Origin: Candidatus Onthoplasma faecipullorum
GTDB taxonomy: Bacteria > Bacillota > Clostridia > Christensenellales > UBA1242
DNA length: 64,000 bases
Assembly: GCA_019120295.1 (NCBI GenBank)
Contig: DWVI01000004.1
Location: 102,201-166,200, forward strand
Reading direction: 5' to 3'
Translations under genes and position numbers: made by a program
Shown here: one piece after another, positions 4,371 through 46,260 of the stretch
Layout: each line of letters begins with the position of its first letter
How positions within the stretch are numbered: position 1 is the stretch's first letter
The notes under the pieces: generated by a model
The model's input: only the letters and a program-made list of their open reading frames with translations
Told to the model about the DNA's origin: nothing
The model's database searches: none

Positions 4371-5312
4371 TTATTTAAATATTTTTGCAACAAATTTGTT
4401 TCCTAAAAGTATAACCATTATAATTGTAATTATTAGAGATAAAGCATAGTTAAAATATATTGGAAAATGAAATATATCATAGTAGGCAAAAAGTTTTATG
4501 AAAAATCCATGTAAGAGATAAATAGAGTATGAATTATTATATTTTGATATAAATGAACATTCTTTGTTTGGAATAAGTACTATAACTGAAAATATTATTG
4601 CTAGGGCAAGTAATAACATTCTAGACCTATCTAGTATAGTGTAATTTGCATTGTTATAAGAGTATGAACCATATAATGCAAGCCTATTAGTGTTATATTT
4701 TATTGCCAATATGGAAGATATAATAAGTAAAATTAAAAACAATAGTTTTATAATAATTTTAGTTTTTCGAGTGGTTGAATTAAATTTATTTTCTAAAACT
4801 CTATACGAATTTTTAAAATAAACGCCTAGGATAAAAAATGGTAAAAACACAAATGTTCTAGAAAGGGAATATCTATATCCAACGTCATCTAAATATCCAA
4901 TAAGTAAACTTATTATTACGGATATGAGTAATATAGTAATTTTAAGATACTTATTTTTTACGTTTATGATTGGTAAAATCAACAAGTATATTGCAGAACT
5001 AAACAAATACCAAAGTAACCAATATGGTTGGTAAAATTGCATTGTTAAGTTATTGTGTAATATGTAATTTTCAAATAATATATACAAAACTTGAAAAATC
5101 ATATAGGGCAAAATGAATTTATTTAACAAATTCTTTATTTTAAATTTAGAGAAAAAACCAAATATAAATATAAAAAATGGCATATGGAAAGAATATATCC
5201 ATCTGTAAATTGCTCCGTTGGTGTCAAAAAGTTCTAACAAATGAGCAAAAACAACAAAAAAGATTAGCAAAAATTTTATATTATCGAATTTATATAACCT
5301 AACATTATCCAC
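4371..5312 (-). CDS. Acyltransferase family 3 membrane protein
   Basis: 313 aa and polytopic. The N-terminal FDNIKFLLIFFVVFAHL and FHMPFFIFIFGFF motifs are typical of acyltransferase_3. Confidence 0.7.
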   Translation of the reverse strand: MDNVRLYKFDNIKFLLIFFVVFAHLLELFDTNGAIYRWIYSFHMPFFIFIFGFFSKFKIKNLLNKFILPYMIFQVLYILFENYILHNNLTMQFYQPYWLLWYLFSSAIYLLILPIINVKNKYLKITILLISVIISLLIGYLDDVGYRYSLSRTFVFLPFFILGVYFKNSYRVLENKFNSTTRKTKIIIKLLFLILLIISSILAIKYNTNRLALYGSYSYNNANYTILDRSRMLLLALAIIFSVIVLIPNKECSFISKYNNSYSIYLLHGFFIKLFAYYDIFHFPIYFNYALSLIITIIMVILLGNKFVAKIFK

Positions 5313-5403
5313 TTTTTAATTATAAAGTATTTTGAGTTGCATTTCAACCATATTAACGCCCCAACAAAACATTTAATAGAGAATAACACCTTTTAAAGAT
5401 ATA

Positions 5404-5429
5404 AACAAAAAACTAGCCTAACGCTAGTT
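5404..5429 (-). terminator. Terminator-like hairpin
   Basis: AACTAGC / GCTAGTT stem followed on the minus strand by TTTTTT. Confidence 0.5.
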
Positions 5430-5434
5430 ATGTG

Positions 5435-5524
5435 TGGTAGTCCCAAGGGGCGAGTAGCGTAAAAAAACATACCCCAATGGGTATGTTTTAGCGTAACGAG
5501 TAACCCCTAGGGGTTCGATTCCCC
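5435..5524 (-). pseudogene. tRNA-Glu-derived fragment: 3' acceptor/T-stem copy with a hairpin insert of about 50 nt in the T-loop position, plus an inverted T-arm
   Basis: 5435-5450 (tggtagtcccaagggg) is identical to the 3' end of tRNA-Glu at 5552-5567. On the minus strand it reads GGGGTT[insert]CCCCTTGGGACTACCA. 5510-5524 is a T-arm (ggggttcgattcccc) in the opposite orientation. Confidence 0.6.
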
Positions 5525-5527
5525 ATT

Positions 5528-5549
5528 AAAAAATAGCACGCGTGTGCTA
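5528..5549 (-). terminator. Terminator immediately after tRNA-Glu
   Basis: TAGCAC / GTGCTA stem followed on the minus strand by TTTTTT, 2 nt after the tRNA CCA end. Confidence 0.6.
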
Positions 5550-5551
5550 TA

Positions 5552-5626
5552 TGGTAGTCCCAAGGGGAATCGAACCCCTGATCCCACCGTGAAAGGGTGG
5601 TGTCTTAACCGCTTGACCATGGGACC
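5552..5626 (-). tRNA. tRNA-Glu (anticodon UUC), CCA encoded
   Basis: Manual cloverleaf: acceptor GGTCCCA/TGGGACT, anticodon arm CCACC-CTTTCAC-GGTGG, T-arm AGGGG-TTCGATT-CCCCT, 75 nt. Confidence 0.9.
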
Positions 5627-6150
5627 GCGTGCCGACATCTCGGCTTTGTAATCGTTTTGCTTGTCGCAAAACTTCATTTGTGCCGAATGTCGGCACGTAT
5701 CCCACTGCGTGATATTCATCACTTGTGGGAGCCCTTGTAATTTTGCTTAAAATACTTTAGCTATTGCTAGGTTGCTTATTTCACGGCGCAACCGTTAGTC
5801 CTTTGCTCGGTTGCTCCTTAATTCCCACTGCGTACCTTACGGCACTCGTGGGAGCCCTGATGAACCCCATTTCGACTATGTCTTATGGGGACCCCTGTTT
5901 TAATCGACGTTGTAATCGTTTTGCTTATCGCAAAACTTCATTTGTGCCGAATGTCGGCACTTTTATGAAGGACAACCGCAGGTTTTCCTTCATGGCTTCT
6001 TTTCCTAATAGGTTTTGATTGAATGATTTTTATATGAGTCGAATAATGGGTACCCTACAAATGTTGGATAACACGCAGTAGGGAAAAGGAGTGGTCGACC
6101 AAAAGGTCTATATTCGAGCTAGCAAATTGACAATGGGTCGTACCACGACG
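5627..6150. ncRNA. ORF-free, G+C-enriched, hairpin-dense spacer between the two tRNAs; candidate structured RNA(s) or tRNA-associated element, strand unresolved
   Basis: Contains two copies of a 51 nt module (5646-5696 and 5910-5960, 1 mismatch). Hairpin families occur at 5701-5734, 5824-5857 and 5863-5895, and inverted at 6048-6083. The track ORFs here overlap tRNAs and hairpins and look spurious. Confidence 0.45.
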
Positions 6151-6234
6151 TGGTGGCGATGGCTCTCTTTGAACCTTGATTATCTGCCAACAAAGTTGTC
6201 AGGGAGATGCGTTGGTTCTCTTTGCCATCGCACC
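6151..6234 (-). pseudogene. tRNA-Met-derived 84 nt rod-like hairpin ending in CCA (degenerate tRNA copy or tRNA-like minihelix)
   Basis: The 5' GGTGCGATGGC and 3' GGTTCAAAGAGAGCCATCGCCACCA ends resemble the ends of tRNA-Met (GGCGATGTGGC ... GGTTCGATTCCACCCATCGCCACCA). The interior folds as one long stem, not a cloverleaf. Confidence 0.55.
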
Positions 6235-6238
6235 TTAA

Positions 6239-6314
6239 TGGTGGCGATGGGTGGAATCGAACCACCGATCTATCGGGTATGAACCGATCGCTCTAACCGC
6301 TGGGCCACATCGCC
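6239..6314 (-). tRNA. tRNA with CAU anticodon (elongator Met, or the Ile2 lysidine type), CCA encoded
   Basis: Manual cloverleaf: acceptor GGCGATG/CATCGCC, anticodon arm ATCGG-TTCATAC-CCGAT, T-arm GGTGG-TTCGATT-CCACC, 76 nt. The G1-C72 pair argues against an initiator tRNA. Confidence 0.85.
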
Positions 6315-6479
6315 TTATGCGAATTTATTATATCCAATAAAATAGTCATTGTCAAGTTATTTTTACAAAATTTTAGTATTTTTAGGTTATTATGTAACGT
6401 TTTTATGAAATTTTATTGTTATAAGCTAAAATAATCGCATAATTTCTTTGTTGTGTTTTGCGGTGGTGTGTTTTTGGTT

Positions 6480-7313
6480 TTACAAATTGTCTGTCATGCC
6501 TGAAAGTTTATCATACTCGTCAGGTGTGCCAATATCGTAGAAGGTTCCGTGATGTGGGAAGGTGAAAGATTTTGTGTTTTGAACAAGGTAATTTATAAAG
6601 TAGCCAAGGCTATCGCGTTCCTTTTTGTTATCTTGCTTTAATGTCAAGTAGTGGTCAAGTAGAGCAAAGTCGTGGCGATTGAATAAATATAGAGCGAGTG
6701 AAACGTTATTTGATTTGCAATTTTCAATTCCTGGTTTTTCGTCCAATGAAAGAATGTGATTTTCTGCACCTAGATTTAAAATGCCAAAGTTTTTAGCAAT
6801 GAACTCACGGTCACTATCTGGGTAAACTTTTGAAACAACCAAGTTAGAAGGTCCGTGCATAATTTCTTTATATTGACCATAGATAAGAAAATCGTCAAGG
6901 TCGAAATCAAAATAATTGTCGCTAGCCATAACTAAGATGTGTTCTTCTGAATTAGGCGAGATGTAACGGTTGGCTAAATTCATGTCCATATTAGCGCCAA
7001 TGGCTTCAGATTTATTTTTAGAACCATCATTTAAAATTGTAAATAATAATTCACCATTTTTTCTTGGATTGTTTACCTTCCATTCTTTGCACGCTTCTTT
7101 TATTTGATTGTAATACTTTGCGTTTGTTACAACGATAATTTCGCTAATATCCTTTACTGTTTGTATTTGATTGATTTTATCTAATATAAAATATAAAATT
7201 GGTTGAGTTTTTCCTTCAACTGTAATTGGAAGCAGAGTTTTTGCAACTTCTCCGCCGTTTGTTCTACTTTCTAATCTTGTGGCATATCCACCTGCTAAAA
7301 TAACTATTTTCAT
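6480..7313 (-). CDS. Sugar-phosphate nucleotidyltransferase family protein
   Basis: The N-terminal MKIVILAGGYATRL matches the GxGtRL NTP-transferase signature; 277 aa. Confidence 0.7.
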   Translation of the reverse strand: MKIVILAGGYATRLESRTNGGEVAKTLLPITVEGKTQPILYFILDKINQIQTVKDISEIIVVTNAKYYNQIKEACKEWKVNNPRKNGELLFTILNDGSKNKSEAIGANMDMNLANRYISPNSEEHILVMASDNYFDFDLDDFLIYGQYKEIMHGPSNLVVSKVYPDSDREFIAKNFGILNLGAENHILSLDEKPGIENCKSNNVSLALYLFNRHDFALLDHYLTLKQDNKKERDSLGYFINYLVQNTKSFTFPHHGTFYDIGTPDEYDKLSGMTDNL

Positions 7314-14176: not shown

Positions 14177-15076
14177 ATGGAGAATTTTGATGTTGTGATT
14201 ATAGGGGCGGGTCCAGCAGGTTTAACTGCAGGAATTTTTACAACGCGAGCAGGCTTAAAAACTCTATGTTTAGAAAAGTTGGCTGTTGGTGGTCAAGCAT
14301 CACTATCATATAGCATTGAGAATTTCCCAGCATATAACTCTATTTCAGGTTTTGATTTAGCAAGCAAAATACTAGAGCAGGCAAAACTTAGTGGTATGGA
14401 GTTAAGAGAAGAAAATGTTTTAAGTTTAACAAAAAAGCGTGGTGTGTTTATTATTGAAACAAAGTCAAACACGTACCAATCTAAAAAAGTGATTTTAGCA
14501 TGTGGCAACAAGGCTAGAAAACTTGGGCTAGAAAACGAAGAGCAACTTATTGGTCGCGGTATAAGTTATTGCGCGAGTTGTGATGGTGGCTTTTTCAAAG
14601 GGAAAGAAGTTGCCGTTGTTGGTGGCGGAGATACAGCAGTTGACGATGTTGAGTATTTAACACGCGTTGCAAGCAAAATTTATTTAATCAACAGAAGCGA
14701 AAGATTTAAAGCAGGAAAAAGAAAAATTGAAGAGATAAGTAAATTAAAAAATGTTAAAGTTTTAACCAATGCAAAAGTTACAAAATTAATCGGAAATGAT
14801 AAATTAGAAGCAATAAATGTTGATGTCGCAGGGAAAAATAAAAAATTAAAAATTGAAGGGCTATTTGTTGCTATAGGTCATATTCCTGATTTATCATTTT
14901 TAAAAATTGATATTAAGTTAGATAACGCTGGCTACATAGTTGTGAATGAAGATATGCAGTCAAGCGAGAAAAATCTATTTGCAGCAGGCGACATTGTAAG
15001 TAAAAAGTTTAAACAAGTTATAACCGCATGTAGTGATGGAGCGATTGCTGGCAATTCTTGCATAGGAGAAAAATGA
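14177..15076 (+). CDS. trxB: Thioredoxin-disulfide reductase family flavoprotein
   Basis: Contains GAGPAG (FAD binding), the redox-active CASC and a second GGGDTA dinucleotide motif. The usual HRRxxxR NADPH patch reads NRSERFK. Confidence 0.8.
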   Translation: MENFDVVIIGAGPAGLTAGIFTTRAGLKTLCLEKLAVGGQASLSYSIENFPAYNSISGFDLASKILEQAKLSGMELREENVLSLTKKRGVFIIETKSNTYQSKKVILACGNKARKLGLENEEQLIGRGISYCASCDGGFFKGKEVAVVGGGDTAVDDVEYLTRVASKIYLINRSERFKAGKRKIEEISKLKNVKVLTNAKVTKLIGNDKLEAINVDVAGKNKKLKIEGLFVAIGHIPDLSFLKIDIKLDNAGYIVVNEDMQSSEKNLFAAGDIVSKKFKQVITACSDGAIAGNSCIGEK

Positions 15077-18000
15077 GAAAAAGAATTAGTTGTATCTTCA
15101 CATTTGTTTTAGTGATATGTTCACTAATCTTTGTTGCGCCACTTGGTGGAACATATGCTTACGAACCAACCGACATTGTGGATAGTAAATATTTAATAAC
15201 CACAGATATTGGAGATAATCAAGTCTATTTATCAAACGAAGTTGCAGGAAAAACTTCTGGTTATGGTAGATTTGTTATTGATGCGCAAAACGTAACCTTA
15301 TCAACCACCGCCGAGCAAGGTTATAGCGTTGCAGGCTGGAATATTACATATGTGGACGAAGATAGGTCTGAATTTGTTAACGCAAATGATGCAGTGCTTG
15401 GCGAAAATAATGTATACACTCAAACAGTTGATATAGATAGCAATTATAACGTCAATATCACAATCAATTATTTCGACGAATATAGTAACGGAGTTTTTAA
15501 CTATTCAACATTCACAATATCACGTGTGTTCGGCGATTTACAGGTTGAGCCTGTGTTTAAATATAATTATTACAAAGTTCAAGTGGACGACGCGCTAACT
15601 ATTGGAAACATCACCGAATTAGATAATATAAATTTATCTGCTAGCGAAACATTGTATTATGAAAATTCAAGCGTGGCAGACGGCGTCACATATTACACTA
15701 ATTCATATATTTATTCAGACGAAGGCTTATTTTACTTTGGCGATTTGTATAGTGAAAACCAAATCATTACAAGTGGAGACATAAGTGAAAGTTTAACTAG
15801 ATATTACACATTGCATTACAGTTCTTCACTTGTAGGTTCAAGTGAAAAAGTAGATTACTCACTTGGCGCATATAGAATTGGCGAAAATGTAAATTATAAT
15901 CTAAATATTGCATTATCTAGCGCGATTGAAGATAGTGTAAACATTGAAATAACTGCAACAAATTTAATAACGAGTGAAGGTACAACAGCGCTTCCTAACA
16001 CAGGGGAGTCAAACTATTATTCAGTTGAAAGTGATAGTTTTTTAAGAAGTTCTTCATATTATGTAAATTTTGTGGTTACACATTCGTCCAATCTAATAAA
16101 TACAGTTGATATAGTTTACAACAATTTGTATTTAGTTACATTAGTTGCAAGGATAGACGGCGAAGTTGTAACAGATGTGCAAGAAACAGACGTTTTAAAT
16201 GTAGTTTCTGTGTTATATCAATATTCACAGATAAATAATAAACAATATTTTGCAAAATCACAGGAAAATAATGACGGTTTTGCGTTCCGTGTTTCAACAA
16301 TAGATGTAATTTCTAAAATGATTGACGGCAGAGTTTACAACTATTATGAGTTTGATAGTTTAGACGGAGATAATCAACTTTATAAAACATATCCGACGAT
16401 TAACAACAATTTTGAAATTACAATAGATTATGTTTCAATAGATTACACAGTAGATTTTGCTTTTGCGGTTAACCACAATGGCACACTAAATGTATTAGAA
16501 GGAAATTATAATCTTGAAAGTCCGATTACGGCAAACCGTGGAGACGAATTGCAAATCAATAAAACCGACATTTCAAACAATATTGGTTACGATTTTTATG
16601 GCTTCACCTTAACTACCACGTCCTTCCAAGAGAACGATTCAATTACCATAGAAATTGATGAAGAAAGACCAGAAAATGTAACAGTTATAATGGTTTATGA
16701 GTTGATAGATTATACGATAAATATTCGTAATTTTGACCAAATAACTTTAATAAATGGTGAGCAAACGATTTATCCTATAACAAGGATAGATTACACTCAC
16801 ACAAGGGAATCGTCAAGCAATACATATTCAATATATGACCAAGATTTAAGGTCGGCGGAAAATAATAGCATTAGCCTTTCAGTAACGGCAAATTTAAATG
16901 ATAGTATATCGCTAAGTACTTATGTTAATAATGGTTTCAGCATTCTAGGTTATAGATTGAGTGAGTTAGATAATCTTAGTTCAGGTAGTACGTTCAGTTT
17001 AAACATTTCACAAGATATAATCAGTCAGTTTGCGGACGGAACGAATATAAATATTTACATATATGAAGATTTCGTTAGATATACAAGCACCTTCTATATA
17101 GACCCAAGCCTAGACACAAACACAAATCAAATGGTTGTCATGGCAGATATTGACGTTACCGCGCCAGAATATGCCGTGGTTAATAAGAGTTTTGTTGTGG
17201 AAACAGGAGATGTTGATTATTCAGTAAGACACACAATCGTTGTAAGCAACTTAAAATTATACGATCAAGTTAGTATGAATTCGGTTGGTAGAGAAATATC
17301 AAACGACCAAGGCGAAAGTTACCGCTACATATTTGTTAGATTTACTGAAAATGGTCTTGTAAATTTAGATTACACACTAAATGAAGACACAAACACCTAT
17401 ACACACACTTCTCAAATAATTCGAGATAACAGCATTAGCGTTGTTTACTCAATGGAAAGTTCTAAGTTGTATGTTTCAACAAACAGAGCGGACGCTTATG
17501 ATTTATCATTAGTTACATTTATGCGTAACGGCGAAGTGGTTGAGAAAAATGAAGACGGCACTATCGACGCAGAAGAAGGGGAACTCACTGTTGTGTTAAA
17601 CCCTATGAGCGAAGATAGAACGTTTGCATTTGGTTATAGTTTTGTTGGTTACACTTTCATAAAGGGCGGAGTTAGTGAAACTGTTCAAAGTTTAAACACA
17701 ACTTTCGTGCTTCAAACGATTGGTAGTAGTGTTCAATATCTAGAATTGAATTTTATTGAACTAGAATATCGTTTGCAAGTTAGCCAATATGGCGGTGATT
17801 ATGACGGTGAATTGGTGGAATTTGAAGAAAATCAAACTTACACATCTCTTGATATTACCGATTTAACATTAGAGTTTGAAAAACCAACGGGTTACTATGT
17901 AAGTGCAACATATTTTGTTAGCAATGTGGAAAATCTTTATCCTGAAATTGTTGAGTCTAATAGCAACGTAACATATACATTCAGTTATACATTTAACCTA

Positions 18001-21000
18001 ACTCAATGGGAAGATATTGTTGAAACATACGGCGTTGAAGTGGAAGACGAAAATTACATTCGCGTTGATATGCGCGTGTTATATTCAATTTACACTTTTG
18101 ATGTTGTGGTAAATTATGAATTAACTAACCCTAAAAATAATAGTTATGATTTGCTTGTTCCATATCCTAGCATAAATTTGGTGTATGTTTTAAATGGTGT
18201 TAGTGAAACGGCAAATTTCACAAGAGTTGATAACGTTTTAACGTTCACAGGCGTTCCATATGGCGCACAGGTTAGTTTAAATGTTGGCAATATTCCTTCT
18301 GGTTTTTCAGCACTCACAAACTGGACGGACGAACGAGATTTCCAACTAACATCACCATATGTTGCTAGTGCAAGTCAATTGTCGTTCTCAAACATAACAA
18401 GCAATCAAGTATTTAAATATAAATTGGACTACTTATCATACGAAATTAGATTAAATTACCAAAATCAAGGTAGCCCAACAGTGGAAGTAAATAACGTTTT
18501 ATCAAATTCAATCACGCTTTATGATAGTTTAAGAATCACAATGAATGCTAACAAAGCGAGTGGTTTTAGATTTGAAAATATGTACTATTATAGGCAAGAG
18601 TATGTGCAATATACTTACGACGAAAACACATGGAACTCTCAGGCACTCAATTTATACATTTTCTTAAATAACACATACGTTAGAAACGACTCATATGTTT
18701 ACGACGAAAATCAAACTTATTATTCACTTGAAGATGTGATTGTAAACTTTGCAGAAAACACAACATTCACAGATAGTTTATTTAATATTTCAAATTATAA
18801 AAACGAAAATGGCGTAATCAACTTCTATATTGAATATGCTTACATTGAAGTTTTAATCAACAACGTAAATTCAAATTATGCAGATTCACCTAGTTTAAAT
18901 AGGGGCGATTTAACGATAATGCCAGAAGATTACACCACTTATTCAGTGTCAGTGTATTCTAATGGAATTGAAACTGAAATTGAACCAGGTGAAACGGTTG
19001 ATTATAGAGATAGAGTTATAATTCGCATTTCATTTAATAGCGTTGAAATTGATGGTCAATCGTTTGATTTAGGTCGCGGAATTGAATTAGTATTAGTAAA
19101 TTTCTTAACCTTTGATTCGTACACTTTTGAACGAATTGACGACGAAGAATACACTTATCTTTTAGTGATAAACATTAGCGATATAATCGCAAACATTCCA
19201 GATAGTGGCGAACTCACAATAAATTATTATTATAGAGTTAAAACTGTTAACACCACCATAACAACAAATATCACTTCAAGTTCGTTTTATTACACTGACA
19301 ATGGAAGAGTGTTCTATCTTCAAGCAAACGGTATTGAAGGCGGTTTTGGTGGAATTATTTTAGGTATTGGTGATAGAGATTTATCTCTTACATATCCATT
19401 CCAATTTTTAGGCACTGTTTCGTTTGATTATTGGTTTATTGACTCAAATTATTCCAATTACTTTAAAATCACAGGCATTAGACTGTATGATAGCACAGGT
19501 CGAGAACTAGAAAATTTTGCAGACTATGGAATTTATCCGCAGTACGACGGTGAAATTCTAGAAAGCGTGCGCACTAGATACGTTGAAGATGTGACAATTC
19601 ACTTAATAGTTCAACCGATTATACTATTTAATGGTGCAACTGTTGTTAATGGTGACTACGTTTTCACAAGCATGTTTATATGTAACAATGAAGGTATAGG
19701 AAGTCCACAAGAATTAACTATTGGTAGCACGCAAGCATACCAAATTCAAACGAGTGAATTGATTTTATCCACACTCCGCGATGAACTTGGAATTTATAAT
19801 ATTTATTACACAAATTCAAATTCAGTTAGAGTTCAACCAACAAACGTTGGTAGATATGAACTTCACTTTGTGTTCAATTCAAGCGGTGATTTTGAGTGGA
19901 TAAATGAATTAAATTTAAATTACCGAGTTTATTTAGATATAATACCGAGAGACGTGCAAATAACTTATGATATATCACGAACATTTAGTAAAACGTATGA
20001 TGGCAATTCAACAGTCGACCCAGGGCTTGTTACACAATATCTAGTGATTACTGATAACGCCGGAATGAATTTAAATTATTCAACTCAATATAATTTTGCC
20101 TTGGCTTCCACAATAACTGGAAGAATAACCTACACAGATAGGGGTCAAGAAGTTGAAACAAGCAGAGCAAATGAAGATGTGTATTACAATATCTATTTGT
20201 CCGGTTTGGCATTTACCAACACAGCGTTTAGCAACAACTTTAACTTAACCAATTCAACTTTAACAATAATCGGTGTTATGCGAATAAATCGCAAACCAAT
20301 TGATATTGTTGGAATTGTTGCGGACGATAAAGTTTATGACGGCACAAATGCAGTTACATTAAGTGGAACAGAAAATATCAATTTACGCGGAATTGTTGCG
20401 GACGACGATGTAAGTTTGTTATTAGATAACATGGTTATAACGTTTGAAAACGCAGATATTGGCGCAAATAAAGATATTGGTGTTGTGTCTGATAACACAC
20501 TAACTGGTGAAGATGCAAGCAATTATGTGTTAAACCCAGTAACAGGAATAACTGCTAGCATTTATCCATACCAAGTTAGCACAACTATTGAAGGTTTTGG
20601 TGAAATCACAGTAATTAATGAGCGCGGTTTAACTGATAAATCAAAAGTTTCACTCATTCCAATAGGCGCAACGCTAAGCGTATATTCGTTTGTAAATGAT
20701 AGTCAAGATTATTTAAATATTTACAACCTAATAGCAAGTTATCTATCAAATGGTAGAGTGTTTGAAATTGGTATTGAACTTCATTTTGTTCAAAATGGAG
20801 TTGAATTAAATTTATCTAATGATTTATATATTTCTTTACCAAAAGTGGATAGATTAACAGGTGTTGTTTATTTAACAGGTGAAAACACAGGCGAGTTGAC
20901 TTACACTGAGCAAGAAAACACAATTTTAGTTGATTTAAGCCAGTTTGAAGCAGATGTTAACACATTGTTTATCACAAGGCAACGAGTGTTGCTCGAATTG

Positions 21001-21117
21001 TGGCAAATCATTTTGATTGTAATATTCTCATTGCTACTATTAATAGCAATAATCATTATAATTGTAATCTCTCGTAAGAGAAAGAAAGAGCGTTACAGCA
21101 TAAATGATAGAATTTAG
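15073..21117 (+). CDS. Giant cell-surface protein (about 2014 aa) with signal peptide, N/Y/T/S-rich beta-type repeats, C-terminal YDG-motif (MBG/adhesin-like) repeats and a C-terminal TM anchor
   Basis: AGGAG RBS before the ATG at 15073, which overlaps the trxB stop codon (ATGA). Signal peptide MRKRISCIFTFVLVICSLIFVAPLGGTYA. KTYDGNSTV and KVYDGTNAVT repeats lie near the C-terminus, followed by a hydrophobic anchor and RKRKKE. Confidence 0.8.
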   Translation: MRKRISCIFTFVLVICSLIFVAPLGGTYAYEPTDIVDSKYLITTDIGDNQVYLSNEVAGKTSGYGRFVIDAQNVTLSTTAEQGYSVAGWNITYVDEDRSEFVNANDAVLGENNVYTQTVDIDSNYNVNITINYFDEYSNGVFNYSTFTISRVFGDLQVEPVFKYNYYKVQVDDALTIGNITELDNINLSASETLYYENSSVADGVTYYTNSYIYSDEGLFYFGDLYSENQIITSGDISESLTRYYTLHYSSSLVGSSEKVDYSLGAYRIGENVNYNLNIALSSAIEDSVNIEITATNLITSEGTTALPNTGESNYYSVESDSFLRSSSYYVNFVVTHSSNLINTVDIVYNNLYLVTLVARIDGEVVTDVQETDVLNVVSVLYQYSQINNKQYFAKSQENNDGFAFRVSTIDVISKMIDGRVYNYYEFDSLDGDNQLYKTYPTINNNFEITIDYVSIDYTVDFAFAVNHNGTLNVLEGNYNLESPITANRGDELQINKTDISNNIGYDFYGFTLTTTSFQENDSITIEIDEERPENVTVIMVYELIDYTINIRNFDQITLINGEQTIYPITRIDYTHTRESSSNTYSIYDQDLRSAENNSISLSVTANLNDSISLSTYVNNGFSILGYRLSELDNLSSGSTFSLNISQDIISQFADGTNINIYIYEDFVRYTSTFYIDPSLDTNTNQMVVMADIDVTAPEYAVVNKSFVVETGDVDYSVRHTIVVSNLKLYDQVSMNSVGREISNDQGESYRYIFVRFTENGLVNLDYTLNEDTNTYTHTSQIIRDNSISVVYSMESSKLYVSTNRADAYDLSLVTFMRNGEVVEKNEDGTIDAEEGELTVVLNPMSEDRTFAFGYSFVGYTFIKGGVSETVQSLNTTFVLQTIGSSVQYLELNFIELEYRLQVSQYGGDYDGELVEFEENQTYTSLDITDLTLEFEKPTGYYVSATYFVSNVENLYPEIVESNSNVTYTFSYTFNLTQWEDIVETYGVEVEDENYIRVDMRVLYSIYTFDVVVNYELTNPKNNSYDLLVPYPSINLVYVLNGVSETANFTRVDNVLTFTGVPYGAQVSLNVGNIPSGFSALTNWTDERDFQLTSPYVASASQLSFSNITSNQVFKYKLDYLSYEIRLNYQNQGSPTVEVNNVLSNSITLYDSLRITMNANKASGFRFENMYYYRQEYVQYTYDENTWNSQALNLYIFLNNTYVRNDSYVYDENQTYYSLEDVIVNFAENTTFTDSLFNISNYKNENGVINFYIEYAYIEVLINNVNSNYADSPSLNRGDLTIMPEDYTTYSVSVYSNGIETEIEPGETVDYRDRVIIRISFNSVEIDGQSFDLGRGIELVLVNFLTFDSYTFERIDDEEYTYLLVINISDIIANIPDSGELTINYYYRVKTVNTTITTNITSSSFYYTDNGRVFYLQANGIEGGFGGIILGIGDRDLSLTYPFQFLGTVSFDYWFIDSNYSNYFKITGIRLYDSTGRELENFADYGIYPQYDGEILESVRTRYVEDVTIHLIVQPIILFNGATVVNGDYVFTSMFICNNEGIGSPQELTIGSTQAYQIQTSELILSTLRDELGIYNIYYTNSNSVRVQPTNVGRYELHFVFNSSGDFEWINELNLNYRVYLDIIPRDVQITYDISRTFSKTYDGNSTVDPGLVTQYLVITDNAGMNLNYSTQYNFALASTITGRITYTDRGQEVETSRANEDVYYNIYLSGLAFTNTAFSNNFNLTNSTLTIIGVMRINRKPIDIVGIVADDKVYDGTNAVTLSGTENINLRGIVADDDVSLLLDNMVITFENADIGANKDIGVVSDNTLTGEDASNYVLNPVTGITASIYPYQVSTTIEGFGEITVINERGLTDKSKVSLIPIGATLSVYSFVNDSQDYLNIYNLIASYLSNGRVFEIGIELHFVQNGVELNLSNDLYISLPKVDRLTGVVYLTGENTGELTYTEQENTILVDLSQFEADVNTLFITRQRVLLELWQIILIVIFSLLLLIAIIIIIVISRKRKKERYSINDRI

Positions 21118-34061: not shown

Positions 34062-34397
34062 ATGAAACATTTTATGAAATTACAAAATGAACCTTTTACA
34101 AATATAAAAAAGGGTTTAAAAACTATTGAAATGAGATTGTTTGATGAAAAACGCCAACAAATTAAAGTGGGAGACACGATTGAATTTACAAACATGTTTA
34201 GTTCAGAAAAATTAAATGTAAAAGTGATAGGGTTACACAAATTTAAAAATTTTGAAGAACTTTATTCCCATTTTAATAAAAAACAATTAGGTTATAAGCA
34301 AACGGAAATAGCAAGTCCAAACGATATGAACCAATATTATACTAATGAAGACATTGAAAAATACGGTGTCGTCGGAATTGAAATTAAAACTTTTTAA
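34062..34397 (+). CDS. ASCH domain protein
   Basis: 111 aa. MKLQNEPFTNIKKGLKTIEMRLFDEKRQQIKVGD matches the ASCH N-terminal pattern. Confidence 0.6.
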   Translation: MKHFMKLQNEPFTNIKKGLKTIEMRLFDEKRQQIKVGDTIEFTNMFSSEKLNVKVIGLHKFKNFEELYSHFNKKQLGYKQTEIASPNDMNQYYTNEDIEKYGVVGIEIKTF

Positions 34398-34433
34398 TCT
34401 AAAATTACTAAAAATATTATTGTACAAAATATT

Positions 34434-34439
34434 TATAAT
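34434..34439 (+). promoter_or_regulatory. TATAAT box 15 nt upstream of the tRNA-Arg 5' fragment
   Basis: Exact TATAAT, but no convincing -35 element. Confidence 0.3.
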
Positions 34440-34454
34440 TTTGTACAAATATAT

Positions 34455-34726
34455 GCTTCCGTGGTGTAATGGATAGCACACGCAATACATCTGTGCGTTT
34501 TAATCGTTTACTCGAAACTCGTAAACTTCATTTATGCTTGATGTATTGCGTAACCCCACTTCGACATTGTCTTGTGGGGACCACAGAATAACCCCACTGC
34601 AACATTCGTTTTGTGGGGACCCCAGAATAACCCCACTGCAACATTCGTTTTGTGGGGACCCCGTGAACCATTGCGCTAAAAGATTTGCACGATTTCGAAT
34701 TATTCTAACATTTTAATATCAAATAT
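34455..34726 (+). ncRNA. Candidate structured RNA/element: a copy of tRNA-Arg positions 1-26 fused to about 245 nt of hairpin modules, directly upstream of the intact tRNA-Arg
   Basis: 34455-34480 is identical to 34727-34752. 34481-34550 is homologous to 5629-5696 with compensated stems. Three hairpins of the CCCCAC..GTGGGGACC(CC) family follow, and GAACCATT (34665-34672) matches the tRNA anticodon-stem 3' side. Confidence 0.5.
34585..34662 (+). repeat. Perfect tandem duplication of a 39 nt hairpin unit
   Basis: agaataaccccactgcaacattcgttttgtggggacccc occurs twice, back to back. Confidence 0.9.
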
Positions 34727-34801
34727 GCTTCCGTGGTGTAATGGATAGCACAATGGTCTTCGGAACCATTAGTTCGGGTTCAAATCCTGACGGAAGCACC
34801 A
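34727..34801 (+). tRNA. tRNA-Arg (anticodon UCG), CCA encoded
   Basis: Manual cloverleaf: acceptor GCTTCCG/CGGAAGC, anticodon arm ATGGT-CTTCGGA-ACCAT, T-arm TCGGG-TTCAAAT-CCTGA, 75 nt. Confidence 0.88.
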
Positions 34802-34884
34802 ATGTTACTTAGATCTCTTTTCATTATTAAAGTTCTTTATTTTTAAACCATTTTGTGATATAATTATAAAATAAAAGGAGTGTT

Positions 34885-35630: not shown

Positions 35631-35706
35631 CGAGGTGTGGCGCAGTTGGTAGCGCGTATGGTTCGGGACCATAAGGCCGTGAGTTCGAGTCTCACCACTT
35701 CGACCA
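35631..35706 (+). tRNA. tRNA-Pro (anticodon CGG), CCA encoded
   Basis: Manual cloverleaf: acceptor CGAGGTG/CACTTCG, D-arm GCGC-AGTTGGTA-GCGC, anticodon arm TATGG-TTCGGGA-CCATA, T-arm GTGAG-TTCGAGT-CTCAC, 76 nt. Confidence 0.88.
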
Positions 35707-41736: not shown

Positions 41737-41777
41737 TGTCGAATTTAATTGATTTATATATTATTTTTGGGTATAAT
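41737..41777 (+). promoter_or_regulatory. SigA-type promoter preceded by an exact Spo0A-box heptamer
   Basis: TGTCGAA (41737-41743), then TTGATT (41749-41754), a 17 nt spacer, and TATAAT (41772-41777). Confidence 0.5.
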
Positions 41778-41817
41778 AAATACAAATAAATTTAACTTTA
41801 AATTTATAAGGGGTAAT

Positions 41818-44800
41818 ATGAAAAAGTTTAAGGCGCTATTGCTTTTAATAATATTTTGTGTTCCGCTAATTTTTGCAGGTTGCAGAAACACAAATCAAAA
41901 CACTATGAACACGCCAACCGAATTAACGGTTTCGTCTGGCGGGTTTATTAGTTTTGCGCGTGTTGAAAATGACGAATATTATGTTATTTCAATAAATGAT
42001 ATAGAATTTAATATTTTAGTTGAAAATTCTAGCCCTTATATAGAACTATACAACAGAGATAATGTAAATTATTTAAGATACGACGCTTCGCGTTTCTTTT
42101 CCCTTGGTGAGAGTTATAACGTTAAAGTGAAAGCGTGTGCACAGGATAAAGTAGATAGTGCCTACACACAAACTGTAACCTATATGCACACAAAACCAGT
42201 TGATAAACCAAGCAATATTCAAATTGTTGGCACAGTGTTAACATGGGATTCAGTGGAATATGCATCTTTATATGCTGTTAAAGTTATCACTCCAAGTGAC
42301 ACCGAAATTCGCGATTATTCAGGCAACATAATTCAGTCGGACGACGCTGAAAGCATTGCCAATGCCGACCTTACAATGTATCAATTCAGCACAAATAGAT
42401 TTGATTTTTCTTCAATTTTATCACGCGCTGGTGAATACAAATTTTATATAAATGCGGTAAGTGCGTCTAACGTCTATTCAGATAGTGGATACACTTATAA
42501 AACGGTTTATAAACATGTGGTAGATTTATCCACTCCTGTGGTTGGCGAAATTCACAAGGTTAGTGAATACGACCAAACAAGTGAACAATATGTTGATAAC
42601 TTCCACTTGGTGGCGGTTGTTGACGTGAACACAACGGCTATTGAAATTATTTGCAACACAACAAGCAAAGTAATTGAACTCAACAATTCAGTCGATTATG
42701 TAACAAAGCAAGATAATTTAATTGATATTAACTTGTCAAAATACTTCATATCAGAAGGAATTGATTTAAGTGTTTTGGGTGATTATTCATTTAGAATTCG
42801 TTCGGTTGACCTAACTGAAAATAGTGAAAATCGTTATTATAATAATTCTGAATTTAGCGAAACGGTGAATTTAACTGTAAGTGGCAAACTAAGTCCTGCC
42901 GATGTTGAAATTACATATAGTGAATTAAATAATAGTTATGTTTTAACTTGGAATGAAGGCGAAAATAGTGTGGACAATATTGCAGGCTACGCAGTTTACG
43001 TGTTAACCACAAGTGGTGTTGATAGATATGAATATTCACAAAGTTCAACTCTTTCACTTCCTGAAAACTTCATTTCAGCAAGCGTGCAAGTGATATCAAA
43101 GGGTAATTACATTTCGTCTAGTTTAAGTGAATTTTTGAGTGTGTTAGACCAAGAAATTATAGAAAACATCACACTTGAAACATCAGGCACAAATATTGTT
43201 TGGACAAATGTTGACGGCGCAACATACGTCGTTGAAATTGACGGAAACATTTTAGTTCAATCAGAAAATTATGTTGATTTATTAAATTACGATAAAATAG
43301 ATAGTTTCACTGTAACAATCGTGTTAGACGGATATATTCCACTTAAAAAAGAGTTCGAAATTGATTATTATATTCCGCTTGCCACTCCAACAATTGGTCC
43401 AAATCAAGGATTTGTTGATGTTAACACGTATCTTCTAACTTTCTCACCAGTTGAAGGTGCAATCGGTTATTATGTTTACCTTTTAGGGGATGGAATGAGT
43501 GAAGCAATGCGCATTCCAAGAGTGTTCACATCAACCACTATAAATTTAAGCCAATACATAATAAATCAAGGTGAGTACATCAATTATCAAGTGCAAATTC
43601 AAGCGGTTGCGGACCCATACTCAGCAAGGTCTAACTCTGCATTGACAGCTCTTGGTTTACTACAAGTTAGCCATTCAAGAGTGTTAAGCGTTCCAGAGTT
43701 TAGGAAAAATGATTTAGGTCAAGATGCTCCAATAGAAAAAGTTGGCACAGGAAATGATGCAAGGTATTATCTAAATTTCTATGGGGTAACTTACGCAGAT
43801 AGTTATGAAATAATGATAAATTTCAACAGGCTTACTCAATCAAACACTGCTGGAAACGGCTTGTATAGAATAGATGTAACTAGGTATATGGCGAGCGCCA
43901 ATAGTTACACAATAATGGTGCGTGCTCTTCCTGCTAGCACAGATCAAAACGTGAAAGCGAGTGAATACAATGTTTATGAATATGTGTTGACCATGCAATT
44001 AGATGTGGTTACAAATATTCGTGTTGCTGAAAATGATGGGGTTTACACTTTGTCGTTTGACATGCAGGAAAATGCAGCAAGTTATAGAGTGAGAATAGTT
44101 AAGTTAAATGACGGTAATTATTCAGAATACTTAAATTCTAGGGGGCTAGAAAACCCATTTGAAGTAATTCAATCAGCCGACATCACTGAGTATGTTCGTG
44201 AAGCGGGTGAATATTATATTTATGTCACAGCATTGGCAAACAAAGACGGCGGATATTATGGCGACTCGGACGAGTCTAGCACATATGGAGTTGTAAATAA
44301 ATTATCCACTTTAAACACTCCCACTAATATTCAATATAACAACGAGTCAGGTTCAAGTTTTGTGGTGCGTTGGACTGGGGACGAGCATGCCGATTATTAC
44401 ATAATCAACGTTACCGACCCTAATGGTAAAACGCAAGAATATATGTCGCTTACTAATCAACAAAACATAAATTCTAGCATAACAGTTGAAGGAAATTATA
44501 TTGTGAATGTTAAAGCGCAAGTTAATTCAACTGGTGAAAATGCCATGAATTATATGTCTAGCCCAACAAGTGAAGATTATCAAATCACATATGAATACAC
44601 CAACGATTATGATTATGCGCGATATAGTGTGTACATATTTGGTGAACAACAAAACTTTATAATTTCAGATATAAACGACCTTAAAAATATACTTTGGTAT
44701 CACTATCTATTTGGCGTAAATGAAAATTATTATCTAAATTTATATTTAGATTTGCAAGGCGACTCAGCATATGATGCTATAATGAGTTTAGCGCAATCTT

Positions 44801-46260
44801 CAACTGACGAATTGATTTATGATTTTTCAACTGACTCAAATTGGCTCAGTATGACAAGTGTTTCAAGCGAAGGCACATTGTTTGCATACATTTGCACAAA
44901 GATACTTGAACTTTACCCTGAAATGGCGGTGCTTGATAATGTTCAAGTTATGTTGCACTCAACTGGTAGCCCTGTGTTTAAAATAATGTATAGTAACACA
45001 TTAGATGGCGAGAAGATTTCAACCACATCGCAATTTATATCACAAGCAAGAGATTATGGTAATGATTATAATTATCTAGGTGCTTATGAAAGAAGAAGCG
45101 CGAACGCAAGTTTCAATATTGATTCACTTCCTACTATGGACGTTGAAACAACTGAACAATTATTGCACGCGGTTCAATATGGAAGAAAACCTAATTTTGT
45201 GGGAGATAGTCAAATTGCTGAAACAGTTTACTATAATGCTCGCTCGGTTTTAACAGCAATAGTAAATAACAATATGAGCGAAGTTGAAAAAGTGACACGC
45301 ATATTTGATTGGCTTGAATATGCACTTAACTTTAACTACTATGCTGAATACACGGTTGTTGGAAGTGATTTGGTTCGTGGTGATGTTGAAGACTATGGAA
45401 TGAGAAGCGAATTTTATTTAGAAGGATTGTTTTTAAATATAACAAATTCTTCTAACGGCGGTTACGACGGCGAATTCTATCTAGGAAACAGGCTTGCAAC
45501 TAATCAGTTGTACGCCAAAGCGTTCACCTTGCTATGTTCAATCGAAGGAATTGAAACTAGAAAGATAAACGGCACCGTTTCAACTGAAAACACAACAATT
45601 ATTGGAAATCACACTTGGAATAAAGTGTATATAGATGTGGCAGGCAACGGAAACTATGCTTGGTATTCATGTGATTTAACATATTCAGATAACAGAGTGT
45701 TAAGTTATAGTATTGCACAAAGTTATGGAATAAGTTCACACTTGTATTTCCTAGTTTCAGACGATAAGTTGTATTCAGATTTAGGTTCGGTTGAAGATTC
45801 ACTGCTAGTTAGTGAAAAAGCAACACAATCATACAATTATTATTCAAATACAACATTCAGTATGAGTGTGGACGATATAAATTACGCTATAAATGAAAAC
45901 AATGCGGGTTCATTTGATAGTTTTGCTTATAGTTTGATGTACACGGACGACATTAATAATCCATATCAACTATATAGTAGCACATCGCAAATGGGTCAAA
46001 TTCAAGCATACATTCTAAACACAATGTTCTACACTGCATATAACCTAAAGAACAATAGTTCAGGAGTTGCAAGTTTTGAGTTTAGAATAAGCGTTGAAGA
46101 TATGGGTGGTTCAATCTTAACAACGCCTAATAGAATTGAAGATGTTTTAACATATATGAATAGGTATTATTTGGATAGAACTGAACAGTATAGCGTTAAT
46201 GTATATAGTGTGTATGACAGTGCATCTGAAACCACAACTTATATTTACACATTAGAATAA
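41818..46260 (+). CDS. Giant lipoprotein (about 1480 aa) with repeated Ig/Fn3-like modules and a C-terminal transglutaminase-like region
   Basis: GGGG RBS and ATG at 41818, since the track start at 41749 lies inside the promoter. Lipobox LIFAGC. Modules recur around VLTWD / VLTWNEG / VVRWTGDEH. The C-terminal GNHTWNKVYID...YSCDLTYSD resembles the His/Asp part of a transglutaminase core, but the Cys position is not obvious. Confidence 0.75.
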   Translation: MKKFKALLLLIIFCVPLIFAGCRNTNQNTMNTPTELTVSSGGFISFARVENDEYYVISINDIEFNILVENSSPYIELYNRDNVNYLRYDASRFFSLGESYNVKVKACAQDKVDSAYTQTVTYMHTKPVDKPSNIQIVGTVLTWDSVEYASLYAVKVITPSDTEIRDYSGNIIQSDDAESIANADLTMYQFSTNRFDFSSILSRAGEYKFYINAVSASNVYSDSGYTYKTVYKHVVDLSTPVVGEIHKVSEYDQTSEQYVDNFHLVAVVDVNTTAIEIICNTTSKVIELNNSVDYVTKQDNLIDINLSKYFISEGIDLSVLGDYSFRIRSVDLTENSENRYYNNSEFSETVNLTVSGKLSPADVEITYSELNNSYVLTWNEGENSVDNIAGYAVYVLTTSGVDRYEYSQSSTLSLPENFISASVQVISKGNYISSSLSEFLSVLDQEIIENITLETSGTNIVWTNVDGATYVVEIDGNILVQSENYVDLLNYDKIDSFTVTIVLDGYIPLKKEFEIDYYIPLATPTIGPNQGFVDVNTYLLTFSPVEGAIGYYVYLLGDGMSEAMRIPRVFTSTTINLSQYIINQGEYINYQVQIQAVADPYSARSNSALTALGLLQVSHSRVLSVPEFRKNDLGQDAPIEKVGTGNDARYYLNFYGVTYADSYEIMINFNRLTQSNTAGNGLYRIDVTRYMASANSYTIMVRALPASTDQNVKASEYNVYEYVLTMQLDVVTNIRVAENDGVYTLSFDMQENAASYRVRIVKLNDGNYSEYLNSRGLENPFEVIQSADITEYVREAGEYYIYVTALANKDGGYYGDSDESSTYGVVNKLSTLNTPTNIQYNNESGSSFVVRWTGDEHADYYIINVTDPNGKTQEYMSLTNQQNINSSITVEGNYIVNVKAQVNSTGENAMNYMSSPTSEDYQITYEYTNDYDYARYSVYIFGEQQNFIISDINDLKNILWYHYLFGVNENYYLNLYLDLQGDSAYDAIMSLAQSSTDELIYDFSTDSNWLSMTSVSSEGTLFAYICTKILELYPEMAVLDNVQVMLHSTGSPVFKIMYSNTLDGEKISTTSQFISQARDYGNDYNYLGAYERRSANASFNIDSLPTMDVETTEQLLHAVQYGRKPNFVGDSQIAETVYYNARSVLTAIVNNNMSEVEKVTRIFDWLEYALNFNYYAEYTVVGSDLVRGDVEDYGMRSEFYLEGLFLNITNSSNGGYDGEFYLGNRLATNQLYAKAFTLLCSIEGIETRKINGTVSTENTTIIGNHTWNKVYIDVAGNGNYAWYSCDLTYSDNRVLSYSIAQSYGISSHLYFLVSDDKLYSDLGSVEDSLLVSEKATQSYNYYSNTTFSMSVDDINYAINENNAGSFDSFAYSLMYTDDINNPYQLYSSTSQMGQIQAYILNTMFYTAYNLKNNSSGVASFEFRISVEDMGGSILTTPNRIEDVLTYMNRYYLDRTEQYSVNVYSVYDSASETTTYIYTLE

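Follow-up and report, generated by a model that had tools for sequence, protein, structure and literature searches.

The tRNA-Arg(TCG) gene in the 64,000 nt of Candidatus Onthoplasma faecipullorum DNA analysed here (contig DWVI01000004.1, positions 102,201 to 166,200; the window) is preceded by a partial copy of itself that is interrupted by a palindromic module of about 72 nt, F, and by three copies of a 39 nt hairpin, Y. F-Y is best read as a new modular family of palindromic interspersed repeats that has spread into intergenic spacers and into tRNA operons in one gut lineage, similar to repetitive extragenic palindromes (REP) and bacterial interspersed mosaic elements (BIME) or to BOX elements, with the Arg copy representing an insertion in a tRNA-Arg remnant, a reading to which we would give a probability of roughly 55%. 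The repeat family is real and probably belongs to the level of the DNA, and the structure of F is real and conserved, with more apparent resemblance to a REP or BOX-type repeat than to a dedicated RNA gene. The family, its structure, the missing strand signature, the mixed orientation of its copies, the existence of filled and empty sites and the insertion in an anticodon arm are all matters of observation. The tRNA-Arg locus is made up as follows, numbered from the first position of the window:

34414-34454: AT-rich palindrome containing a TATAAT hexamer at 34434..34439 on the plus strand, of uncertain status as a promoter.
34451..34480, plus strand: first copy of a direct repeat, the remnant of a partial gene, with 100% identity to 34723-34752.
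34480..34551, no strand assigned: F module, covariance-model match of 68 bits, E 1.4e-16.
34551..34662, plus strand: three tandem Y hairpins of 39 nt (tandem repeat finder: period 39, 2.9 copies, 93% matches).
34665..34678, plus strand: anticodon-arm relic, GAACCATT and ACCATTGCGCTA, identified by direct and inverted repeat matches.
34679..34722, plus strand: decayed spacer holding TTCGAAT, homologous to a region with TTGACA-17-TAAAAT upstream of the intact tRNA-Arg in a related genome (locus L125).
34723-34752 and 34727-34801, plus strand: second copy of the direct repeat and the intact tRNA-Arg(TCG) gene (ARAGORN, repeat finder, and Rfam with 64.9 bits).

The direct repeat between 34451-34480 and 34723-34752 is exact over 30 nt, at a spacing of 272 nt, and consists of 4 nt of 5' flank and positions 1-26 of tRNA-Arg(TCG). 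A first-pass annotation, made from the sequence alone, had described this duplication of positions 1-26 at 272 nt upstream of the intact gene, and the repeat finder confirms it, the exact flank being 4 nt; beyond this, similarity in the flank reaches about 8-10 nt, with a TA indel. Neither ARAGORN nor Rfam calls a tRNA in 34455-34480 and the DNA that follows, where there is no complete cloverleaf. The segment that had been given as identical to tRNA-Arg positions 37-44 is indeed so, GAACCATT at 34665-34672 being the same as 34763-34770. ACCATTGCGCTA (34667-34678) is an inverted match to tRNA-Arg positions 20-31, with 11/12 nt complementary, and past tRNA position 44 this inverted match is better than a direct copy. 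The TTCGAAT that had been taken for a degenerate T-loop aligns with the TTGACA -35 region of the L125 promoter, not with a T-arm.

Relatives of the Arg locus, found via the neighbouring SIMPL protein, carry several different arrangements (loci of other genomes are cited by their L numbers). The order in L125 (70% amino-acid identity) is tRNA-Arg 1-26, F, two Y hairpins and GAACCATT, with GAACCATTGTGC at the position equivalent to window 34665..34678, and further on there are a decayed F-like module, a Y hairpin and TTGACA-17-TAAAAT just before the intact tRNA-Arg. In L121 (66%), the orthologous partial tRNA-Arg copy is uninterrupted through position 41 and is followed by the same downstream modules, which means that F-Y was inserted in the anticodon arm of an older partial tRNA-Arg copy. 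This upholds the proposal that the element occupies the place of the anticodon arm within a former tRNA-Arg copy, positions 27-36 having been replaced. L121 also carries nested shorter fragments, 1-6 and 1-13, the latter followed by an F-like module. The second module was later lost from the window, apparently by deletion. There is no F in L140, the closest relative, where the SIMPL protein is 90% identical. At 1130-1292 of L140, a decayed tRNA-Arg of the window type lies beside a different tRNA-Arg(TCG) gene, the gene having been replaced at this site.

Within each genome the fragment and the gene have the same acceptor-stem variant, GCTTCCG in the window (34451-34480 and 34723-34752) and GCTTTCG in L125 (4355-4384 and 4705-4734), a difference of C vs T. 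That they share a lineage-specific base implies that gene conversion homogenises the two repeats. Identity between the window and L125 is 73.5% for SIMPL and 87% for ASCH, and 96–99% for the upstream spacer, the fragment and F, a level that could reflect either constraint or a recent recombination tract. The locus started as the remnant of an older partial tRNA-Arg(TCG) duplicate, made up of the 5' flank, positions 1-26 and relics of the anticodon arm, and one unit of a lineage-specific repeat was inserted in the anticodon-arm hairpin of this remnant, replacing positions 27-36. The unit is the palindromic F of about 72 nt with its companion Y, the latter amplified to three 39 nt copies at the Arg locus.

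The outer arms of the Arg-locus F (34480-34491 and 34540-34551) are complementary at 12/12 positions and are followed inwards by a second stem (34495-34498 and 34534-34537) and an inner hairpin of 6 bp (34506-34526). The strands of the internal loop are TTTTAATC at 34498-34505 and CTTCATTT at 34526-34533, with TAATCGTTT at 34501-34509 and AACTTCATTT at 34524-34533 around the inner hairpin. The folding z-scores of the Arg locus are -4.4 on the plus strand and -3.6 on the minus strand, and the DNA and RNA folds of its F are equally good on both strands. The module aligns with 5627-5698 and with a partial copy at 5891-5964, both in the spacer between tRNA-Met and tRNA-Glu, where the features are:

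5552-5626, minus strand: tRNA-Glu (ARAGORN, Rfam).
5627..5698, no strand assigned: F module flush with tRNA-Glu +1, 72.9 bits with covariance model R1.
5699..5894, plus strand: further mosaic modules, namely Y hairpins that start at 5701, 5824 and 5866 and, at about 5764-5819, an F-like module that has no core (compared with the L007 F copy).
5891..5964, no strand assigned: partial F copy that has lost its 5' arm, 40 bits, with its 3' 57 nt 95% identical to 5640-5696.
6239-6314, minus strand: tRNA-Met (ARAGORN, Rfam).

In the outer 10 bp, 6 positions differ between the Arg-locus F and 5627-5698 and every one is still paired, so the homologous element with compensated stems that had been proposed for the two loci is present in both. 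The partial copy is followed by a hairpin, ATGAAGGACAACC..TTTTCCTTCAT. The Met-Glu unit lies between a perfect promoter (TTGACA-17-TATAAT, 6355-6327) and a terminator (5550-5533), both of them on the minus strand, and the RNA made at this locus is therefore the reverse complement of F.

Covariance model R1 was built from 25 copies in relatives; its scores for the three copies of the window are 72.9, 68.0 and 40.0 bits (E ~5e-18, 1e-16 and 1e-8). The pattern TAATCGTTT-N(6-26)-AAACTTCATTT, scanned for in one genome per species, is found at no fewer than 117 loci, about 30 of the matches listed having the same long enclosing stem, while R1 returns 42 copies at E <1e-4 in 30 sources, again among the matches listed. 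The genomes carry several copies each, and every convincing member among the matches listed belongs to a metagenome-assembled genome (MAG) from the gut that bears the label Candidatus Onthoplasma or Clostridia; in the NCBI taxonomy, Onthoplasma is part of Christensenellales. As is typical of extragenic palindromes, F is multicopy and intergenic: about 40 copies are spread over about 28 loci, each ≤8 kb long, and 3 lie in the 64 kb window, all of them between genes.

In the alignment of the 42 copies, 84.9% of the cells are paired, compared with 57.7% in shuffles and 32–44% in slid registers. Both sides are changed in 22/23 pairs and 0/500 shuffles reach the observed covariation score; the F family does have the covarying base pairs that are looked for in structured RNA. 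The consensus has a one-base bulge after about 11 bp, then a second stem of 4-5 bp, loop strands YTTTTAATC and CTTCATTTWT, and G-C/T-A at the base of the inner hairpin. The unpaired segments that had been called conserved, TTTTAATC and CTTCATTT, are near-invariant in the family, a conservation that is partly fixed by the search pattern; copies found only by the model show TTTATCA and TTTCTTTT variants. In outline, F consists of a long stem, which varies and has a single bulged base, of near-invariant loop strands and of a short inner hairpin that also varies. The consensus positions misfit a K-turn, a loop E and an attC box as identities for the internal loop, as read from the alignment with no formal test. 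A small reverse-strand open reading frame (ORF) in F, starting ATGAAG, does not keep its frame between copies in the junction sequences that were read. The inner hairpin and TTCATTT of the two Glu-locus copies are flagged as terminator-like, the Arg copy is not, and the stems are AT-rich with an interrupted T tract.

The Y unit of the Arg locus is CCCCAC..GTGGGG with a short ACC(A/C)C tail, and the three Y-family hairpins described there are recovered at 34551-34662 with a period of 39 and 2.9 copies. A second module regularly follows F in the family, either Y (YCCCAC..GTGGGR-RCCC-TA) or the ATGAAGGACAACC..TTTTCCTTCAT hairpin together with a CU-rich hairpin. The six Y copies in the window occur only beside F and all on the plus strand, and Y also follows F in other genomes. 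The family is a modular one, F with Y or F with the two other hairpins, and forms tandem arrays. Such arrays are seen in L040, with four copies of F, and in L063, L042 and L115.

Other behaviour is also that of a repeat. Outer-stem subfamilies are common to different loci and genomes: GTGGGCGATTTGCCC occurs beside five different tRNAs, and two more groups share GCTCGAAGT and GTCGCA. It had been argued that the compensated differences speak against a recent segmental duplication; given these subfamilies, duplication-type origins remain compatible with the data. Within a single MAG, two paralogues share 85% identity over 105 nt, covering F and the next hairpin, and both lie just after terminator-like hairpins. 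Filled and empty versions of one site are found in the Leu-Gln spacer: L031 has 3 nt there and L004 has 31 nt, but in L039, where the element is present, the spacer measures 238 nt. The 5' arm of F in L029 and L054 contains the last codons and the stop codon of rpsL, to which the 3' arm is complementary, and in L040 and L077 a stop codon lies within the F stem. This presence of host sequence in the stems suggests that some of the complementarity arises or is lengthened on the spot, through template switching or correction of one arm by the other, and such a local process would produce 'compensated' differences with no selection on RNA. 'Empty' outer-stem hairpins, which would point to insertion of the core in hairpins already there, were absent from the fetched loci, and a metagenome scan for them gave unrelated REP doublets and one truncated-core variant. 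The doublets (L145-L175) are of the classical GTAG type (GTAGGGTGGGCTTTTAGCCCACC...), come from high-GC environmental bacteria and are unrelated to F.

The F strand is defined here as the one reading TAATCG to CTTCATTT. On this strand there are 22 G-U pairs and 24 A-C mismatches in the 42-copy alignment, and when sorted by transcribed strand they divide as 13/14 and 9/8 (G-U/A-C). Under RNA parameters, 34/42 F copies (p = 2e-4) and 10/15 Y copies are more stable as the reverse complement; with DNA parameters both F strands fold alike. The earlier argument that G-U pairs favour the plus strand is not borne out, because of this balance of G-U and A-C and because the reverse complement folds better in most F and Y copies. 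The tolerance of G-U, avoidance of A-C and fixed orientation relative to transcription that would mark a strand-specific RNA are not seen in the F family.

In the covariance-model hit set, 13/14 of the F copies adjacent to a tRNA or tRNA fragment are antisense to it, and the outer stem of 11 of the 13 antisense copies starts 0-2 nt from tRNA +1. The adjoining tRNAs are Glu, Gln, Lys, Ser, His, Arg-TCT, Arg-ACG, Gly and Leu. The first-pass annotation had the module in the same sense as its tRNA, which among the 14 is true solely of the window Arg copy, shared with its L125 orthologue. F is found inside tRNA operons as Met-[F]-Glu in the window, L065, L100 and L107, as Leu-[F]-Gln in L039 and as Gln-[F]-His in L031, and in L004 it lies in a tRNA operon downstream of a strong promoter, as in the window Met-Glu unit. 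The junctions show no consistent -10/-35 at the distance needed for a promoter in the reverse complement of F starting at tRNA +1.

At protein-coding genes the orientation is mixed. F shares the direction of its flanking genes directly after rpsL in L029 and L054, in the four-copy array of L040, and in L077, L063 and L079, and is antisense to both neighbours in L070, L053, L042, L054:611 and L080. The reverse complement of F is present in the leader of rplJ (L10) at about 900-1011 of L070, followed by a mini-ORF of 6 codons, and at about 1490 of L080 it abuts the start of nrdG with its stem overlapping the ATG, where the loop AAAGG could be the Shine-Dalgarno sequence of nrdG. Orientation relative to the G-rich strand is 26:16 and relative to the majority-gene strand 25:17, no clear bias and not decisive; the 26:16 ratio is neither for nor against single-stranded DNA transposition.

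No known family was recovered by the searches. At the gathering threshold of Rfam 15, the four tRNAs are all that passes in the window, and E-value scans of 34380-34830 and 5320-6480 gave just sub-threshold chance matches; no match of F-Y to IS605-associated RNAs was found in Rfam. A phage or plasmid origin was considered and set aside: in viral contigs the F core pattern gave weak partial matches of 20–30 bits, as against 50–83 bits for true copies, the second-hairpin and Y patterns were absent from the viral scans or gave chance matches in high-GC DNA, and BLAST of plasmid and phage collections gave no match to the element. Literature searches for a hairpin motif upstream of tRNAs or a mosaic repeat in Firmicutes found nothing specific.

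Among known systems, the REP, BIME and REPIN repeats are alike in being short multicopy extragenic palindromes, modular, in both orientations and often after stop codons or between cistrons, with hairpins on either strand and arms kept complementary. REPs differ in being 20-40 nt long, sequence-conserved within a species, beginning with GTAG and tied to a REP-associated tyrosine transposase (RAYT) gene, whereas F has variable stems and a near-invariant internal loop across species, lies flush and antisense at tRNA +1, and no RAYT was seen in the fetched loci. F has no 5' GTAG, and in place of a conserved palindrome its outer stems differ within a genome. BOX of Streptococcus pneumoniae (boxA-boxB(n)-boxC) is a modular intergenic element with a variable number of internal modules, as F-Y(n) is with 3 in the window and 2 in L125, and both fold stably and have no coding capacity. 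BOX differs in its conserved module sequence and in having neither a hairpin of conserved loop and variable stem nor a link to tRNAs, and a relationship in sequence would not be expected.

F also resembles the attC sites of integrons (57-141 nt), which are recombined as folded single strands and have variable sequence, compensated arms, extrahelical bases and an unpaired central spacer. Conservation in attC is in the outer R''/R' boxes (RYYYAAC / GTTRRRY) and in F it is in the interior loop; the base of F is variable, GTTT..AAAC flanks its inner hairpin in the opposite order, and there is no integron integrase, no attI and no cassette. The ends of IS200/IS605 elements and the palindrome-associated transposable elements (PATEs) likewise have hairpins, with no terminal inverted repeats or target duplication, and move as single-stranded DNA, for which F on the left and Y with its conserved tail on the right would be comparable; F-Y, by contrast, has no tnpA/tnpB nearby and no conserved target tetranucleotide at the left junction, and its F and Y hairpins are unlike each other. 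Miniature inverted-repeat transposable elements have conserved terminal inverted repeats and a short target duplication, neither of which is found here, the sole flanking repeat being the 30 nt tRNA piece.

On the favoured reading, F would be a REP/BIME/BOX-like palindrome at the level of the DNA. Its arms would stay complementary on both strands because selection acts on a hairpin intermediate of single-stranded DNA, because template switching or correction of one arm by the other restores the pairing, or for both reasons. The invariant loop strands would be the contact site of a putative trans-acting protein. When transcribed, in either orientation, the element would give a stable RNA hairpin, probably a passive structure affecting processing or stability, and the Arg-locus F most likely belongs to a long 5' leader of pre-tRNA-Arg that is removed by RNase P, and is probably no dedicated RNA gene. 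If F is such a repeat, it accounts for contig breaks and odd tRNA fragments in gut MAGs, provides a new repeat family for the poorly studied branch labelled Christensenellales by NCBI, and illustrates that compensated stems between paralogous palindromes are no proof of an RNA gene.

Several observations weigh against this reading. The core is near-invariant across many species, and F occupies the same spacers in several of them (Met-Glu in the window, L065, L100 and L107; rpsL-rpsG in L029 and L054), which suggests long-term function over selfish turnover. The F of the window and that of L125 are 98.6% identical, whereas the third codon positions of the neighbouring genes are 58–73% identical. 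A passive repeat does not account for the antisense bias (13/14) or for the junction flush with tRNA +1 (11/14 antisense, 0-2 nt). The F junctions show neither a target-site duplication nor a conserved terminal repeat, and no transposase, RAYT or integrase was found near any copy in the 28 family loci or among the annotated ORFs of the window, so that the mobility of the element is deduced from comparison only. In the search for a recurrent neighbouring transposase, an all-vs-all ORF comparison of the 28 loci gave only syntenic housekeeping genes, and the annotated window ORFs are housekeeping genes.

The alternative that fares best, possible though not the one we would choose, is that F is a cis-acting signal for RNA processing or stability in polycistronic transcripts, like the RNase III sites of phage T7, and is read by a lineage-specific protein or nuclease. 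Its functional form would be the reverse complement flush with tRNA +1, and other copies, including that at Arg, would be secondary or inactive. The antisense placement at tRNAs speaks for such a signal: in 13/14 tRNA-linked copies the reverse complement is co-transcribed immediately 5' of the tRNA, most of them 0-2 nt from +1, and copies lie within tRNA operons downstream of good promoters (window, L004, L039). The Met-Glu and rpsL-rpsG positions are conserved across species, there are copies in the rplJ leader and at the nrdG start, the reverse complement is more stable in 34/42 copies (p = 2e-4), the loop strands are near-invariant, and the 98.6% identity of F against 58–73% at third codon positions would fit constraint. 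T7-type RNase III hairpins are themselves similar, being about 60-70 nt long with a lower stem, a conserved internal loop and an upper stem, and lying between cistrons. They are strand-specific RNA signals, however, while F is in both orientations with no G-U signature, and the transcribed strand shows no excess of G-U. Of the copies beside protein genes, about half are transcribed the other way round, in which the loops would be U-rich rather than A-rich, so that no single specific loop reader would serve for both. The tandem arrays and subfamilies are repeat-like, and a hairpin flush with position -1 is expected, from the contacts of RNase P with the leader, to impede cleavage, not to help it.

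The conserved internal loop with free stems, the core shared across species and the antisense hairpin at tRNA +1 in most tRNA-linked copies are uncommon in interspersed repeats and together point to a specific partner protein. That the F loop is a docking site for a structure-specific protein of the Onthoplasma lineage, either a single-stranded DNA recombinase or transposase or an RNA-processing factor, is a speculative suggestion that we regard as doubtful. A recombinase may insert F at the base of existing hairpins or into their loops, such as a tRNA gene edge, an anticodon arm, terminators and stop-codon hairpins; with an RNA factor, the leader hairpin flush with tRNA +1 may be a new signal for 5' maturation. 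F would then be the cis element of a new system, not a passive repeat, and the partner protein, if identified, could reveal a mobile element that targets hairpins or a new mode of tRNA-operon processing.

It is unlikely that the 30 nt repeats are attL/attR-type scars, left by integration in tRNA-Arg of an element bearing the 5' part of the gene, with the 242 nt between them a leftover after deletion and F-Y either cargo or a later addition. As in islands and prophages integrated in tRNA genes, exact direct repeats of a tRNA gene edge flank the insert, and relatives have nested fragments; those of L121 (1-6, 1-13 and 1-41), each with its own flank, are like a tandem accretion. L140 has its decayed old tRNA-Arg beside a different tRNA-Arg(TCG), tRNA 3' ends are duplicated at Glu (5436-5451), Met (6152-6163) and, five times, Gly in L039, and L125 has a fresh TTGACA-17-TAAAAT promoter just before the intact gene. 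The repeat at the Arg locus, in contrast to such islands, covers the 5' part of the gene, when integrases reportedly exchange the 3' part of tRNA genes as a rule; the insert is just 242 nt, and no integrase was found in it or among the neighbouring genes checked, nor any match in phage, plasmid or viral collections. The shared acceptor-stem variants fit gene conversion of old repeats better than recent integration. An integrase scar may account for the tRNA-edge repeats but not for F, since it leaves the F copies at tRNA-free sites and the family-wide structure unexplained.

Transcription of the Arg locus bears on the last alternative. The TATAAT at 34434-34439 is present 15 nt before the tRNA-Arg fragment, as stated in the first-pass annotation, which took it as a promoter box; it has no -35 partner and is not called by a consensus promoter scan. 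The palindrome around it (34414-34454, between the ASCH gene and the fragment, with 17 nt arms ATATTATTGTACAAAAT and ATTTTGTACAAATATAT) is 96% conserved in L125 and present in L140, and could serve as operator, terminator or promoter element. The sole promoter-like site upstream in the scan is TTGAAA-16-TAAAAT at 34378-34405. The scan of 34679-34722 was negative, leaving the intact window tRNA-Arg with no good promoter of its own, which makes read-through from upstream plausible; it is plausible that F-Y is transcribed as the leader of pre-tRNA-Arg, although the scan gave no convincing promoter for it. A plus-strand small RNA of about 270 nt (tRNA-Arg 1-26, F and Y), started from the TATAAT and released by RNase P, is the least supported proposal and very improbable: the fold is far better than shuffled (z = -4.4), the TATAAT is 15 nt upstream, the upstream region, fragment and F are 96–99% identical in L125 and read-through into the intact tRNA is plausible, but the minus strand folds as well with no strand signature, at nearly every other tRNA the module is antisense, no -35 element accompanies the TATAAT, and the architecture varies, with L121 lacking F at the orthologous site, L125 having extra modules and 2 Y, and L140 no element.

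Partial duplications of tRNA ends are also found elsewhere. The last 16 nt of tRNA-Glu including CCA (TGGTAGTCCCAAGGGG on the plus strand) are duplicated downstream at 5436-5451, and the insert of about 100 nt between the gene and this duplicate holds the terminator-like hairpin 5533-5550, another hairpin, and an inverted T-arm-like GGGGTTCGATTCCCC at 5513-5527. The 12 nt at the 3' end of tRNA-Met (TGGTGGCGATGG on the plus strand; 6239-6250) recur about 75 nt downstream at 6152-6163, in the Met-Glu spacer, the same kind of tRNA-edge partial duplication as at Glu and Arg. In L039, five tandem units of about 31 nt at 4770-4930, each with the last 9 nt of tRNA-Gly (CCCGCTCCA), lie directly downstream of that gene, and there are none in the related L074.

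The window is low-GC (~33%) chromosomal DNA with genes for TsaD, SIMPL, ASCH, FtsK, PNPase, RF2, SSB, GlnRS and GerA, and its contig is also found in public chicken-gut assemblies (ERZ4883056 NODE_2, 506 kb). The neighbours of the Arg locus are TsaD, SIMPL, ASCH and an unknown protein of 195 aa, and a tRNA-Pro gene lies at 35631-35706 on the plus strand (ARAGORN, Rfam). A 435 aa ORF at 902-2209 on the minus strand consists mostly of repeats with a 9 nt period, matches the collagen triple-helix repeat (Pfam PF01391, E 1.7e-37), and encodes a bacterial collagen-like protein. Two very large ORFs, at 15058-21117 (2019 aa) and 41749-46260 (1503 aa), both have a TTG start.

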